Source: an uncultured bacterium
GTDB lineage: Bacteria; Krumholzibacteriota; Krumholzibacteriia; LZORAL124-64-63
Reading direction: 5' to 3'
NCBI GenBank assembly: GCA_963727525.1
Contig: CAVSGO010000007.1
Span: 1,696,001-1,760,000 of the forward strand
Length of the DNA stretch: 64,000 bases
Position numbers and translations under genes: made by a program. This document shows positions 17,218-29,872 of this stretch, one piece after another. The notes below the pieces were generated by a model. That model had not been told where the DNA came from, searched no databases, and saw nothing but the letters and a program-made list of their open reading frames with translations. Within the stretch, counting starts at the first letter, position 1. Every line of letters starts with the position of its first letter.

Positions 17218-18579
17218 TTACCAGTGGCCCTGATCCATCATCGAGTCGGCGACCTTGAGGAAGCCGCCGATGTTGGCGCCGTTGACGTAGTTGCCGGGCG
17301 TGCCGAACTCGGCGGCCGCCTCGACGCACGTCTTGTGGATGGCCTTCATGATGCCGTGAAGGCGCTGGTCGACTTCCTCGCGGGTCCAGCTCAGCCGCAG
17401 GCTGTTCTGGCTCATCTCCAGGCCGCTGGTGGCCACGCCACCGGCATTGGCGGCCTTGCCCGGACCGTAGAGGATGCCCTTCTCGATGAACTGGTCGACG
17501 CCCTCGGGGGTCGTCGGCATGTTCGCGCCCTCGGAGACCACGTAGACGCCGTTCTTCAGCAGGTTCGCGGCATCCTTGCCGTTGATCTCGTTCTGGGTCG
17601 CGCTCGGGAATGCGCAGTCGGCCTTGTGATCCCACATCGGGTTGTGGTCCAGCTTCTGATCCAGCGGGAAGAACTGGGCCGTCTTGTACTTCTCCGAGTA
17701 CTCCTTGATCCGGCCGCGCTTGACGTTCTTCAGATCCATGACGAACGCCAGCTTGTCGCGATCGATGCCGGCCTCGTCGTAGATATAGCCGGAGCTGTCG
17801 GACAGCGTGACGGCCTTCCCGCCGAAGTCGAGCAGTTTCTCGACGGTGTACTGCGCCACGTTGCCGGAACCGGACACGAGGCAGGTCTTGCCCTTCAGCT
17901 CTTCCTTGCGCGTGCCGAGCATCTCCTGCGCGAAGTACACCGCGCCGTAGCCGGTGGCCTCGGGCCGGATCAACGAGCCGCCCCAGTTCAGCCCCTTGCC
18001 CGTAAGCACACCCACGAACTCGTTGCGGATCTTCTTGTACTGTCCGAAGAGGAAGCCGATCTCGCGGCCACCGACGCCGATATCACCAGCCGGCACGTCA
18101 GTGAACTGGCCGATGTGACGGCTCAGCTCGGTCATGAAGCTCTGGCAGAAGCTCATGACCTCGTTGTCGCTCTTACCCTTCGGATCGAAATCGCTGCCGC
18201 CCTTGCCGCCGCCCATGGGCAGCGTCGTGAGGCTGTTCTTGAAGACCTGCTCGAAGGCCAGGAATTTCAGGATGCCGAGGTTCACGCTCGGATGGAAACG
18301 CAGCCCACCCTTGTAGGGACCGATGGCACTGTTCATCTCGATGCGGAAGCCGCGGTTGACCTGGATGTTCCCCTTGTCGTCGACCCAGGGCACGCGGAAC
18401 ATGATGACGCGCTCGGGCTCGCAGATCCTCTCGAGAACCTTGGCCTTGCGATACTCGGGGCGCTTCTCGAGCACCGGCCATATGGAGGTCACGACCTCTT
18501 CCACTGCCTGATGGAACTCGGGCTCCGCCGGGTTCTTGGCCTTGATCATGTCCATGAACTGGGCAACGTTCTGGGCCAT
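17218..18579 (-). CDS. gdhA: Glutamate dehydrogenase (GdhA / NADP-type subfamily)
   Basis: [53 protein letters not shown]. Confidence 0.96.
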
Positions 18580-18755
18580 GTCCGTTCTCCCTTGTTAGAT
18601 TTTTTGCGCCTCAAAACGCAGAAGCCGGGGCGCCATGTCCCGTGCGTTTCGAAAAGGTAGGACCCGAAAAAGTCAAAGCAAGGAAATAACGGATTACCGA
18701 GCGAAAACCCCCATGAATCAGGGGAATCAGGGCTGATGTTGTCGACGATCCGCGA

Positions 18756-26784: not shown

Positions 26785-26881
26785 GGAAGCCCCTTTCGTT
26801 GGGAAATTTAGGGCAAACAACGACGCCGCCGCGAGGGAAGTCAAGCCCAGGTTGTGATTCCTTGAACGGGCCGCTCGCCGA

Positions 26882-29872
26882 CTAGCGGGAGGCACCGTCC
26901 GTGGCCGGTCGCCGCACCACGCCGCGGCGTTGCCGACCGTCGATCACCACCTCCAGCGGAACCGCCAGGTGCACGTGCCGCAGGAACGTGCCCTCCCACG
27001 CGGCGGGCTGGGCGTCGAGCCAGTCCCAGTCGCAGGTGGCGGGCGGAGCGCCATGATTCACCGTGAGATAGCCCACCTGGAAGCTCGTGAGATTCTGGAA
27101 GAAGTGCGTACCCTCGCTGGGCGTGACGCGAAAGTCGGGCAGATCCGTCTCCACGATCACGCGGGCGCCGCTGATCTGCTCCCAGCGTACCGGAATGCCT
27201 AGCCAGCGATCGGCCGTACCCCAGCGGCCGGGACCGAGCAGGAGGTAGGGCGTCTCTGTCTCGAGCAGGCGCCGGTTGGCCTCGGCCACCTCGGCGGCGA
27301 TGGCCACCGTGTGCGCGCGCTCGAATCGCTGCCGCGGCACATAGACGATATCGCATAGATCCTCGTGCCGACCATTGCCGAGCGCCACCTCGCTGGCCAC
27401 CACCACGCGCGCCTCGTCGAGCGCCTCGCGCGCGAGGGACACGTTACCGGCCTGCAACGCCAGCGGCCGGATCTGCAGGAACCCGAACTGGTGCGGCACC
27501 AGGGACGGATTGGGACTGAGCGTCACCGCCCACTCCAGCTCCACCTGTGCGCTCATGCAGTTACGCCCGAGTTCCAGCAGGAATTCGAGGATCTCGGCGA
27601 GCGGGAAGATGCCGGATTTCAGCACGTGCGCGAAACTCACCACGCGGGTGCCCGGCCGCGTGATGCCGTCGGTGATGGCGCGGTTCTCGGCGGAATACGT
27701 GGAGCCCACCGCCGCAAGCGTCCCGTGTCGCTCGGCGTCCGCCAGGTCGAGCACGGTAAGGTCGTAGTCCTCACGCGCCTGGGGCGAGATGTCCGCATGC
27801 GAGAGATCGATGGCATGGAACTCGCGCTGGCTGCCCTTGAGCCAGTCGTCGATGGTGCCGAACTGTTGCAGGTGCTGCGGCTGGCGTGGATTGAAGCGCA
27901 GCACGTTGCCACCTTCCACGACCACCCTGCCCAGGCCCAGCGCCGCGCACACCACGCCATCGTGGGGATCGGCCCCCGGTTGCGGGTAGAAGTCGGTGGA
28001 GTGGGCCACGCCGGCGAAGTCGGGATAGAAGACGCGCTCGTGCCGACGACCGACCACCTGCTGGATGATCACGGCCATCTTCTCCTCTTCCGCCCGGCTG
28101 CCCGTGGCGGCGAGGTACGCCTTGGCGCCCCGGGTGAACACGGAGGCATAGACGAGCTTGATGGCGTCCACGAGCTGCCCCAGCCGCACGGCGAGTCGCG
28201 GATGATTGTTGGGCAGCATGTAGGTGGAGTACACCCCCGCGAACGGCTGGAACTGGCTATCCTCGAGCAGACTCGACGAGCGCACGGCGATCGGGTAGCG
28301 CACCTCGCGCAGGAAGGCCTCGAGATCGCCGATCACCGCGGAGGGGAGCGCGGCCCCGAGCAACGCCTGGACCACGAGAGCGTCGTCGACGTCGCCGTAC
28401 ACGCGATCCCGCAGACCAGGTGTATCGAGGACCTGATCGAACACGTCGGTGGCCAGCACGGCCGTGGGCGGCACCCGCAGATCGACCTCGGGGAACCGGT
28501 CCATCACGCCGTAGCGATGCAGCACCGCGTTCATGAACGCGAGCCCGCGCGCCTTGCCGCCCAGCGATCCCCCGCCGATGCGCACGAAGTCGTTGCGCAC
28601 GTCGAATTGCCGCCGCGAAAAATCCGCGACGATCCCGCGCTGGGTTTCGGTGCGGAAGCGGTCGAAGCTCTCGCGCAAGTAGCGGCGCAGCGCCCCGACG
28701 TCCGCGAACTCCCCTACCTTGCGCGGCCGGATGAGGGCCGCCAGCGCGAACTCGGTGCGCGCGCGCAGCCACGTGGAGAACTGATCGTTGCCGGCGTGAT
28801 GGATGATCGACGCGTCGGGCACCTGGTCGAGCTTCTCGACCATCTCGCGCAGATCCCGCGCGCGGCCCACCTCCGTGCCGTCGGGCAGGCGGAAGACGAA
28901 ATCGCCGAACCCGAAGTTGTCGGCCATGAAGACGCGCAGCTCGTGCAGCAGGGCGCGCGACCGCTTGTTGATAAAACCGGCGCCGATCGCCGCGGCCGAG
29001 GCGCGTAGCCCCTCGTTGGTCGACTGCAGCACCACCGGGAGATGCCGATCCACCGCCTTCACCTTGCCGATGAAGTCGAGCCCCGCCGTCTCCGGCACCG
29101 CGCCGTCCCACGGGAACTGACCGTCGCTGATCACGCCGAGCAGGTAACCCTGGTACTGGCGAAAGTAGCTCCAGGCTTCCTCAAAGGTGGTCGCGAGGAT
29201 GATCTTGGGACGCGCGCGCATCCGCAGGAGGCGGTGGCTGAGATTGATACCCTCGGCCATCAGCTCCTGCGTCTGGTGCACCACCTCGGTGTAGAGCATC
29301 GGCAGGTAGAGCGAGAAGAAGCGCACGGAGTCCTCGATGAGCAGGATCACGCGCACTTCGCCATAACGAGTGTCGTATGGCAGGTTCTTCTGGTCCTCCC
29401 AGCCCTTGATCATCGCCAAAAGCAGCCGCACGTCGCCCGACCAGAGGAACACGCGATCGATGGCGCCCTCGTGGCTCTGCCGCTCCACCTGCTGCAACTC
29501 GCGGGGATTCAGCACCAGCGTGTACACCGGCACGTCCGGATGGGTGGCCTTGATCCGCGCGGCGAGATCGCCGGCCTCGAGGTCGCCCAGGCGGGACATG
29601 GTGATGACGAGGTCGAAGCGCCGGGTCGCCAGCAGGTCGAGGGCCTCGCGGCCGCTGTTCGCGCGGGCGATACGGGGCGCGAAGCTCAGGTTCAGCTCGC
29701 GGTACTCGCTAAGGAGCAGCTCCGTGAGCCGTCCGCCCTCCTCCAGCGTGAAGGCGTCGTACATCGACGCCACCAGGAGCACTTCCTGCACCCGGAAGGG
29801 CATGAGATGGCTGAAGCCGCCGAACCTGTCCTCGGTCCCGGCCTGCAACTGGTGCCAGAAGGAGTCTTTCAT
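26882..29872 (-). CDS. PEP-synthase/PPDK-type ATP-grasp protein with two N-terminal receiver-like domains
   Basis: REC-like segments (FDLVITM; VILLIEDS...GVISD...VVLQST...FINK), GGKARG, AVRSSSLLED, FAGVY, FLQIRP, GPGRWG, SEGTHFF. Confidence 0.88.
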   Translation of the reverse strand: MKDSFWHQLQAGTEDRFGGFSHLMPFRVQEVLLVASMYDAFTLEEGGRLTELLLSEYRELNLSFAPRIARANSGREALDLLATRRFDLVITMSRLGDLEAGDLAARIKATHPDVPVYTLVLNPRELQQVERQSHEGAIDRVFLWSGDVRLLLAMIKGWEDQKNLPYDTRYGEVRVILLIEDSVRFFSLYLPMLYTEVVHQTQELMAEGINLSHRLLRMRARPKIILATTFEEAWSYFRQYQGYLLGVISDGQFPWDGAVPETAGLDFIGKVKAVDRHLPVVLQSTNEGLRASAAAIGAGFINKRSRALLHELRVFMADNFGFGDFVFRLPDGTEVGRARDLREMVEKLDQVPDASIIHHAGNDQFSTWLRARTEFALAALIRPRKVGEFADVGALRRYLRESFDRFRTETQRGIVADFSRRQFDVRNDFVRIGGGSLGGKARGLAFMNAVLHRYGVMDRFPEVDLRVPPTAVLATDVFDQVLDTPGLRDRVYGDVDDALVVQALLGAALPSAVIGDLEAFLREVRYPIAVRSSSLLEDSQFQPFAGVYSTYMLPNNHPRLAVRLGQLVDAIKLVYASVFTRGAKAYLAATGSRAEEEKMAVIIQQVVGRRHERVFYPDFAGVAHSTDFYPQPGADPHDGVVCAALGLGRVVVEGGNVLRFNPRQPQHLQQFGTIDDWLKGSQREFHAIDLSHADISPQAREDYDLTVLDLADAERHGTLAAVGSTYSAENRAITDGITRPGTRVVSFAHVLKSGIFPLAEILEFLLELGRNCMSAQVELEWAVTLSPNPSLVPHQFGFLQIRPLALQAGNVSLAREALDEARVVVASEVALGNGRHEDLCDIVYVPRQRFERAHTVAIAAEVAEANRRLLETETPYLLLGPGRWGTADRWLGIPVRWEQISGARVIVETDLPDFRVTPSEGTHFFQNLTSFQVGYLTVNHGAPPATCDWDWLDAQPAAWEGTFLRHVHLAVPLEVVIDGRQRRGVVRRPATDGASR

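Follow-up and report, generated by a model that had tools for sequence, protein, structure and literature searches.

Enzymes built on a PPDK_N-type ATP-grasp domain include phosphoenolpyruvate (PEP) synthase (PpsA), pyruvate phosphate dikinase (PPDK), rifampin phosphotransferase (RPH), glucan–water dikinase, PigC/RedH, phenylphosphate synthase and HpeHI/AcvAB, and all of these act on small molecules. RPH has a rifampin-binding domain and a canonical histidine swivel domain. In HpeHI/AcvAB and phenylphosphate synthase, which act on phenolic substrates, the PEP-utilizers histidine domain resides on a separate subunit. Glutamine synthetase and PII (GlnE/GlnD) and isocitrate dehydrogenase (AceK) are established cases of reversible nucleotidylylation or phosphorylation, catalyzed by sensor-controlled enzymes whose genes lie near or with that of the target. 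To our knowledge, no system of the GlnE/GlnD or AceK kind, and no dedicated modifying enzyme, is known for bacterial hexameric glutamate dehydrogenase (GDH), an enzyme at the junction of carbon and nitrogen metabolism. Here we analyze a stretch of 64,000 nucleotides from an uncultured Krumholzibacteriota bacterium (contig CAVSGO010000007.1, positions 1,696,001 to 1,760,000; the window), in which three dikinase-like PPDK_N paralogs are encoded together with two GDHs. We propose that they form a GDH-dedicated, sensor-gated transferase module with GDH as the modified target, a reading to which we assign a probability of roughly 0.45, somewhat short of even odds.

Six genes make up the set, in which REC denotes a receiver domain and NT a nucleotidyltransferase domain:

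26882–29872, minus strand: REC-core paralog, 996 residues; Pfam PPDK_N (120.9 bits) and Response_reg; the database gene call is identical
25495–26784, minus strand: GDH1, 429 residues; Pfam ELFV_dehydrog (238 bits) and ELFV_dehydrog_N
23658–25406, minus strand: core-only paralog, 582 residues; PPDK_N ATP-grasp and C-terminal domain (residues ~396–582, DNA 23661–24221)
20501–23671, minus strand: GAF-like/core/NT paralog (GAF-core-NT), 1056 residues; Pfam PPDK_N (187 bits), NTP_transf_2 and Polbeta
19629–20504, plus strand: calcineurin-like metallophosphoesterase, 291 residues; Pfam Metallophos PF00149 (30 bits, cut-off 21.5)
17218–18579, minus strand: GDH2, NADP-specific GdhA type, 453 residues; NCBIfam PRK09414 (756 bits, cut-off 536)

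REC-core and GDH1 are separated by 97 nucleotides and GDH1 and the core gene by 88, while the start of GAF-core-NT overlaps the stop of the core gene by 14 nucleotides. The phosphoesterase is convergent on this cassette, and its end overlaps that of GAF-core-NT by 4 nucleotides. Because the G+C content of the region is high (~0.63–0.70), many spurious open reading frames (ORFs) overlap the real genes, which were picked out by profile searches (Pfam, NCBIfam); protein-database gene calls on the same contig agree for the 996-, 582- and 1056-residue proteins. These searches bear out an initial annotation, made from the sequence, of three co-oriented paralogs, two GDHs and a convergent metallophosphoesterase. 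The GGK, VRSSSLLED, F[AS]GxY and LQxRP motifs that it had claimed for all three paralogs are present in all three translations.

REC-core aligns with the core protein at 42% identity over 569 residues (E 2e-130), and GAF-core-NT does so at 28% over 528 residues (E 4e-35). The alignments show all three to be genuine paralogs within the PPDK_N ATP-grasp family. PPDK_N (PF01326) is the sole dikinase-type domain matched by each in Pfam, with scores of 120.9, 112.5 and 187.2 bits against a cut-off of 27. Likeness to PpsA and PPDK lies in this ATP-grasp, with its GGK, VRSS, ExE/DxE and QxR motifs and its fold (2ols, 1kbl), but the window proteins are without the swivel domain and the TIM barrel and carry sensor domains and a nucleotidyltransferase. 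Neither PF00391 (PEP-utilizers, the phosphohistidine swivel) nor PF02896 (PEP-utilizers_C) was matched by the paralogs, with the C-terminal pieces searched at E ≤ 10. A regular-expression search of the window found no GGxTSH-type motif, the mark of the phosphohistidine swivel domain. Against the NCBIfam equivalogs for PEP synthase, PPDK, RPH and PigC/RedH, the paralogs score 15–60 bits where the cut-offs are 500–1350, the top score being 59.5 bits for TIGR01418 (cut-off 739.75). With swivel histidine domain and PEP/pyruvate barrel not found and equivalog scores this far under their cut-offs, the claim of the initial annotation that these are not PEP synthases holds. The automatic names in the source databases are generic: 'PEP/pyruvate-binding domain-containing protein', 'pyruvate, water dikinase', 'pyruvate, phosphate dikinase', 'CheY-like chemotaxis protein', 'nucleotidyltransferase domain-containing protein', 'histidine kinase' and 'hypothetical protein'.

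In PPDK, the nucleotide site is lined by the GGK lysine, the VRSS arginine, the acidic pair of (E/D)xEF and, from LQxRP, a glutamine and an arginine. Invariant residues are K34, R125, E372, E374, Q391, R393 and H514 in core orthologs; K344, R443, D688, E690, Q702, R704 and H831 in GAF-core-NT orthologs; and K440, R531, E778, E780, Q800 and R802 in REC-core orthologs. The AlphaFold2 model of the core protein (pLDDT 85.4, pTM 0.86) matched PDB folds in each case via the ATP-grasp: RPH 5hv3 (E 1e-13), HpeI 9goj (E 8e-10), PEP synthase 2ols (E 3e-9) and PPDK 1kbl (E 2e-7). The confident models contain no substrate-binding insert or barrel, just the ATP-grasp and a 187-residue alpha/beta domain. 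Profile searches and structure prediction both agree with the initial annotation, which had seen no pyruvate-binding barrel: no pyruvate-binding domain was found, and the C-terminal 187 residues form a small alpha/beta domain, not a TIM barrel.

Other members of the family come closer in one respect or another. RPH, the top structural match (5hv3), likewise has an ATP-grasp followed by a C-terminal domain and reuses the scaffold for a non-pyruvate substrate, but the fold match covers the ATP-grasp alone (TMq 0.39 for full-length 5hv3; TMt 0.70 for the isolated ATP-binding domain 5hv6_B), and the window paralogs score 18.8–35 bits against the NF041857 cut-off of 999. PigC/RedH are equally removed in score (28–56.6 bits against cut-offs of 1300–1350). 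HpeHI/AcvAB and phenylphosphate synthase are PPDK_N proteins that have no barrel and work with partner subunits, and HpeI (9goj) is among the fold matches; however, clustering of the ORFs of the surveyed loci, described below, found no separate PEP-utilizers histidine subunit in the GDH cassette.

What follows the ATP-grasp in all three paralogs is a common domain of ~180 residues, terminal in two of them and internal in the 1056-residue protein, which the initial annotation had not mentioned. Its motifs are GxGRWG..D, E and SxG[ST]HFF. Aligned in 35 sequences drawn from all three classes of paralog, the domain is invariant at N, L, the G-R-x-G of GxGRWG, the Asp three residues on, the Glu of IVE and S-x-G-x-H-F-F. 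Modeled alone, the 187-residue alpha/beta domain reaches a pLDDT of 92. It has no Pfam match, no significant match among PDB sequences (the top one, to a longin domain at E 0.07, we attribute to chance) and no match among PDB folds at E ≤ 0.001, and an Atlas search returned solely fragments of the same family. Of the weak fold matches, PPDK chains are highest (TM-score 0.35–0.38, probability 0.47–0.69), and others are to aconitase, TRiC and LD-carboxypeptidase; all four are proteins with the swivelling beta/beta/alpha fold known from the phosphohistidine domain. Since comparison of the domain profile with one genuine PPDK, from locus L073, found nothing (probability 0.1), kinship to the swivelling fold is a lead only. 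In 1.84 billion proteins, the profile matched 2552 cluster representatives (50% identity clusters) at E ≤ 0.001, and PPDK_N precedes the domain in 14 of 14 atypical-length matches inspected, and the C-terminal domain thereby defines a distinct subfamily.

The domains attached to this core differ among the paralogs. REC-core is composed, in order, of a pseudo-receiver, a canonical receiver, a DUF5752-like linker between the second receiver and the ATP-grasp, the PPDK_N ATP-grasp and the family-specific C-terminal domain, and this architecture of ~1000 residues is kept in the 120 homologs listed. Pfam Response_reg scores 35.5 bits (cut-off 30.2). The second receiver is canonical, with E180, D250, S284 and K303 invariant and D181 nearly invariant in 22 sequences, while at the acceptor position of the first a methionine, Met92, is nearly invariant. 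The REC-REC-core architecture of the initial annotation thus stands for the second receiver and has to be amended for the first, which is a pseudo-receiver. Its description of the system as sensor-driven is likewise upheld by the canonical receiver of REC-core, the GAF-like part resting on sub-threshold matches. GAF-core-NT comprises a sensor-like region (1–335), the ATP-grasp (340–719), the C-terminal domain (~720–900) and the nucleotidyltransferase (~926–1000). Its N-terminal 335 residues appear weakly GAF-like: Pfam GAF is sub-threshold in the window protein (E 0.058) and is found at E ≤ 1 in 8 of 24 orthologs (best 0.0027), and Atlas neighbors score 0.77–0.79, a lead only. A PDB profile search with the region returned nothing.

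The nucleotidyltransferase is of the minimal Pol-beta type (PF01909, NTP_transf_2, 34.3 bits, cut-off 21), and G964, S965, D976, D978 and D1021, forming GS...DxD plus a third Asp, are invariant in 22 sequences. Matches to NTP_transf_2, Polbeta and NF047752 and the GS...DxD...D pattern liken this C-terminal part to MntA, but the NF047752 score (23.6 bits) is under the cut-off of 60, there is no HEPN partner and the domain is fused to an ATP-grasp enzyme. GlnE and GlnD also have the Pol-beta nucleotidyltransferase fold. Their likeness to the present system, and that of AceK, is a functional analogy only: there is no sequence kinship beyond the generic nucleotidyltransferase motif, and target and chemistry are here inferred. 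Over 32 sequences, the phosphoesterase is invariant at D8, H10, G35, G83-N84-D85-D86, H190 and G237-H238-x-H240; its third metal motif reads GNDD, not GNHD. An anti-phage defence system was considered and rejected, as PADLOC gave just short generic matches, PDC-S09 and PDC-S10, in the nucleotidyltransferase and the phosphoesterase.

Conservation of the gene order was examined in other genomes. A scan of one genome per species gave at least 602 pattern matches and at least 598 confirmed relatives, and the best 80 of these relatives, all in metagenome-assembled genomes, were compared by tblastn as loci (L numbers) with flanks of up to 10 kb. A core-only ortholog of 45–59% identity is held by 58 loci; the other 22 hold a REC-core paralog. 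The phylum labels of the 58 are Acidobacteriota, Gemmatimonadota, Eisenbacteria, Zixibacteria, Calditrichota, Ignavibacteriota, Bacteroidota, Planctomycetota, Chloroflexota, Spirochaetota, Pseudomonadota and Delongbacteria. In 52 of the 58 (52 of 57 testable), GDH1 immediately precedes the core gene on its strand; three loci have it elsewhere (L010, a split hit; L032; L047, divergent), and one is untestable. Directly downstream of the core gene, GAF-core-NT is found in 52 of the 58, one again being untestable, and in L032 it was scored 'elsewhere' merely as its match overlaps the core end. The NT domain is present in 51 loci, absent from three and untestable in four. Of the 43 loci that are testable for the phosphoesterase, 32 have it, 30 of them in convergent orientation and two on the same strand; another 15 are untestable. 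For the second GDH, 14 of 31 REC-core genes have GDH2 within 600 nucleotides (11 on the same strand, 3 on the opposite one). All six genes of the set recur together in L004, L051 and L062; L009 has the same genes but stops short of the phosphoesterase position. With GDH1 upstream in 52 of 57 loci of many phyla and GDH2 near 14 of 31 REC-core genes, the linkage of the paralogs to gdh, as put forward in the initial annotation, is strongly supported, and the lack of conservation that it had named as a refutation is not seen. All-against-all clustering of 830 ORFs revealed no other recurrent gene family in the loci, and the next-ranked clusters (≤11 loci) are antisense shadows of cassette genes, artefacts of high G+C content.

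Several single loci vary the layout. In L037 (692–3650, Gemmatimonadota), the core gene is followed by a stand-alone 125-residue nucleotidyltransferase that overlaps the core stop and then by a convergent phosphoesterase, with no GAF-core module. In L062 (10856–16594), two REC-core genes flank one GDH2, and the complete GDH1 cassette is present in the same locus. In L073 (11843–14590), a REC-core gene with GDH2 upstream is followed directly by a genuine PPDK of 915 residues with a canonical histidine loop. In L059 (6276–8697), a pyridoxal-dependent decarboxylase (glutamate-decarboxylase-like) and a glutamine cyclotransferase are encoded just upstream of a GDH-less REC-core gene. An N-terminal extension of the L034 core gene has no Pfam match and was set aside as a probable ORF-calling artefact.

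In some lineages the two branch neighbors are joined. Core and GAF-core-NT are one ORF in L011 (2879–7903, 1674 residues) and L056 (2799–7754, 1651 residues), and L042 (1650–6308) holds the fusion as an open-ended ORF. Seven of the 120 best homologs of the 1056-residue protein have the fusion length of 1629–1654 residues, and 4 of the 150 best C-domain representatives carry two C-domains in 1484–1654 residues. One of the fused proteins, P0194, aligns with the core protein over residues 23–572 at 50% identity and continues into a second module. Such proteins (P0194, P0364 and P0366 among them) occur in some Acidobacteriota and Ignavibacteriota. This fusion implies that the core-only and GAF-core-NT proteins very probably act together.

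The two GDHs of the window, both carrying both ELFV domains in Pfam, belong to different subfamilies, as the initial annotation had stated. GDH1 is a hexameric glutamate dehydrogenase of the Thermococcus/Thermotoga/Bacillus class, with Thermococcus GDH 1euz as nearest structure (E 7e-117). GDH2, of the NADP-GdhA class, carries GGGKGG, matches PDB 5ijz (E 7e-177) and is 33–35% identical to GDH1-type proteins by tblastn. K108 of GDH1 (Lys105 of 1euz) is the PROSITE active-site lysine. The window GDH1 aligns with the Thermococcus profundus enzyme without gaps over the N-terminal 110 residues, and its K72, K96, K108 and D148 correspond to Lys69, Lys93, Lys105 and Asp145 of 1euz, all intact. Lys69, Lys93, Lys105 and Ser351 are named as making up the GDH ligand pocket (PMC12001156).

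In 9 of 50 cassette GDH1 proteins, K108 is replaced (by Met in four and by Glu, Ala, Tyr, Gln and Asn in one each), and K72 is also missing in four of the nine. These pseudo-GDH1 proteins (L004, L009, L019, L026, L029, L033, L039, L048 and L051) are still 57–69% identical and keep the cassette position directly upstream of the core gene. The core orthologs in L004, L009, L026 and L048 keep every invariant catalytic residue despite the K108-less GDH1. GDH2 is present in seven of the nine loci (one untestable, one without), as against 5 of the 41 K108-bearing loci, and the lysine is kept in 20 of 20 GDH2 proteins. Seven of the nine form one clade (SH-aLRT 96). The tree, in whose alignment the K108 column was left as 1 of 427 columns, needs at least three changes at this position; a single origin is compatible with the well-supported branches alone. 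Retention of pseudo-GDH1 in place at 57–69% identity argues for a protein-level role of GDH1 in the module, as target, adaptor or sensor, and against mere substrate supply. The Thermus thermophilus GdhA/GdhB hetero-hexamer, with its regulatory, catalytically weak GDH subunit, offers a likeness in that a GDH paralog is kept for a non-catalytic role, but there the subunits are of one class and co-assemble, whereas pseudo-GDH1 stands beside a GDH2 of the other class and dikinase-like genes.

From these features we infer GDH as the target, the chemical mark and the sensor inputs as follows. The module would be dedicated to GDH and would exist in two branches, one of GDH1, core-only and GAF-core-NT, usually with the convergent metallophosphoesterase, and one in which the response-regulator version, REC-core, would act in many genomes beside the NADP-type GDH2. 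Each paralog is predicted to bind ATP in its intact PPDK-type ATP-grasp and to pass a phosphoryl group, with the help of the C-terminal domain, to a protein partner instead of pyruvate, the neighboring GDH hexamer being the most likely partner. Candidate carrier or catalytic residues are two invariant ones of the C-terminal domain, the Asp in GxGRWG..D and the His in SxG[ST]HFF. Core-only and GAF-core-NT may work as a hetero-pair, a proposal made because they are fused in some lineages. The GAF-like domain would gate the first branch, and phosphorylation of the receiver residue Asp250, via an unlinked histidine kinase, would gate the second. The minimal nucleotidyltransferase domain would place a nucleotidyl group on the same target or on the partner, and the metallophosphoesterase would reverse the mark. 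We count in favor of a GDH-dedicated module that each of two GDH classes, themselves non-orthologous, has a paralog linked to it, that motifs are conserved in the ATP-grasp, the nucleotidyltransferase and the phosphoesterase, that a canonical receiver is present, and that there is no substrate-binding insert or barrel. Synteny, fusion, motif conservation and retention of pseudo-GDH1 together favor a protein-level regulatory module over a metabolic operon. The suggestion of the initial annotation, that phospho- or nucleotidyl transfer regulates GDH, is plausible and better motivated than before, though as yet a proposal. In its fullest form, the proposal would describe the first dedicated covalent-modification switch for bacterial hexameric GDH, operating by dikinase-like phosphorylation through a new C-domain, nucleotidyl addition and phosphoesterase erasure, and in some lineages with a dead GDH as adaptor to a second GDH; stated so completely, we regard it as doubtful.

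Several observations weigh against a GDH-dedicated module. No result shows contact with, or modification of, either GDH. Complex prediction for core (residues 14–582) with a single GDH1 subunit of the hexamer, from 25-row alignments, gave 0.01 and 0.02 against a mark of 0.32, which is evidence neither way. GDH1 is absent from 2 of the 57 testable loci (L034, L044), GAF-core-NT from four (L029, L037, L039, L054) and the phosphoesterase from 11 of 43. Among the REC-core genes, 17 of 31, mostly of Desulfobacterales type, have no GDH within 600 nucleotides, four of these 17 having less than 1 kb of upstream flank, and their neighbors are heterogeneous (radical SAM, MiaA and AMP-binding enzymes). 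A phosphocarrier role for the His or Asp of the C-domain, a domain that has no significant relative, is a guess. The pseudo-GDH1 result fits GDH1 as a ligand-sensing subunit equally well as GDH1 as a target. Finally, all characterized PPDK_N-family enzymes that we know of act on small molecules, none on a protein.

In one alternative, the paralogs are small-molecule dikinases in a metabolic operon. A metabolite that GDH makes or uses (glutamate, 2-oxoglutarate, an enol or imino form or a derivative) would be phosphorylated by the ATP-grasp proteins, nucleotidylated by the NT domain and hydrolysed by the phosphoesterase, with the sensors just tuning activity; such an operon would yield a novel metabolite linked to glutamate or 2-oxoglutarate. 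Such an operon would account for the packing with an enzyme, at gaps of 88–97 nucleotides and an overlap of 14, and it agrees both with the top structural relatives (RPH, HpeI, PEP synthase and PPDK, all small-molecule dikinases) and with the family members of known function, none of which is known to act on anything but a small molecule. We nonetheless consider it unlikely, since in 9 of 50 cassettes a GDH1 that has lost pocket lysines stays beside intact ATP-grasp genes. Moreover, no domain comparable to the rifampin-binding or PEP/pyruvate domains was seen in the paralogs, and a canonical receiver, a sub-threshold GAF-like region and an MntA-type nucleotidyltransferase are more typical of signaling.

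A second alternative makes GDH1 the sensor and not the target. Whether catalytic or dead, it would sense glutamate, 2-oxoglutarate or NAD(P)H on behalf of the dikinase-like pair. The output of the pair might be a nucleotide signal that the NT domain synthesizes and the phosphoesterase breaks down, or else the marking of GDH2 or some other protein. The retained pseudo-GDH1 and its association with an intact GDH2 (7 of 9 against 5 of 41 loci) are readily explained in this way, a nucleotidyltransferase with a phosphoesterase suits the making and breaking of a nucleotide mark or signal, and the tentative GAF-like domain points in the same direction. However, 41 of 50 loci have a GDH1 with every pocket residue in place, and 36 of these 41 have no GDH2 or other recurrent candidate target within ~10 kb; minimal nucleotidyltransferases of this Pfam family are known to modify proteins or antibiotics and are not known to make second messengers. 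On balance this alternative also appears improbable. That the paralogs are ordinary PEP synthase or PPDK genes, as some of the automatic source names and the significant PPDK_N match would have it, is scarcely credible given the missing PF00391 and PF02896, equivalog scores of 15–60 bits against 500–1350 and a 187-residue C-terminal domain that is not a TIM barrel. The rest of the probability we reserve for mechanisms other than these.

Should GDH prove to be the target of a dedicated module, a new regulatory layer would be added to nitrogen assimilation and amino-acid catabolism, the dikinase scaffold would be newly used on a protein substrate, a new domain family would be defined, and thousands of annotations as 'PEP synthase', 'pyruvate, water dikinase' or 'PEP/pyruvate-binding' would be corrected. 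The cassette is large and widespread, and among the phyla that carry it are environmentally important and poorly studied ones such as Acidobacteriota, Gemmatimonadota, Ignavibacteriota and Planctomycetota. A full-text literature search found no description linking PPDK_N-family proteins with GDH, though subscription journals and supplements may hold some. Trans-acting genes downstream of Bacteroides thetaiotaomicron gdhA reportedly affect GDH activity (Baggio and Morrison 1996). Literature on PF01326 includes an account of the E. coli ppsA neighborhood of SelO (PMC10364804).

Other genes surround or interrupt the six-gene set:

30010–31487, plus strand: extracytoplasmic function (ECF) sigma factor and zf-HC2 anti-sigma factor, divergent from REC-core
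18756–19658, minus strand: fatty-acid-hydroxylase-family gene, flanked by the phosphoesterase and GDH2; in its longest ORF it shares 30 nucleotides with the phosphoesterase start
14953–17067, minus strand: full-length OvoA, with 5-histidylcysteine sulfoxide synthase (681 bits) and methyltransferase (343 bits) domains
14531–14889, minus strand: transfer-messenger RNA (tmRNA) gene (Rfam RF00023, 161 bits), between a fructose-bisphosphate aldolase gene and OvoA

The OvoA and sigma-factor genes are not conserved neighbors in the 80 loci, and the fatty-acid-hydroxylase-family gene has no counterpart in any of them. An Rfam search for a conserved RNA or riboswitch found none in the intergenic gaps, the sole match in the window being the tmRNA elsewhere, and a scan for promoters and terminators gave no more sites than shuffled sequence. 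The OvoA domains are present in full, indicating a predicted capacity for ovothiol biosynthesis. Farther away, the window encodes a PAS/HisKA/HATPase/REC hybrid histidine kinase (60873–63773, minus strand), 31 kb from REC-core, and a protein with a type IX secretion C-terminal sorting domain (53949–55913, minus strand). This sorting domain and the nearest homologs, in Krumholzibacteria, Eisenbacteria and Gemmatimonadales, suggest an organism of the Fibrobacteres–Chlorobi–Bacteroidetes (FCB) group. At 35332–39167 (minus strand), an aldehyde dehydrogenase gene (432 bits) adjoins a gene for a 741-residue protein with a saccharopine-dehydrogenase domain, a pair that possibly serves lysine or other amino-acid catabolism feeding glutamate.

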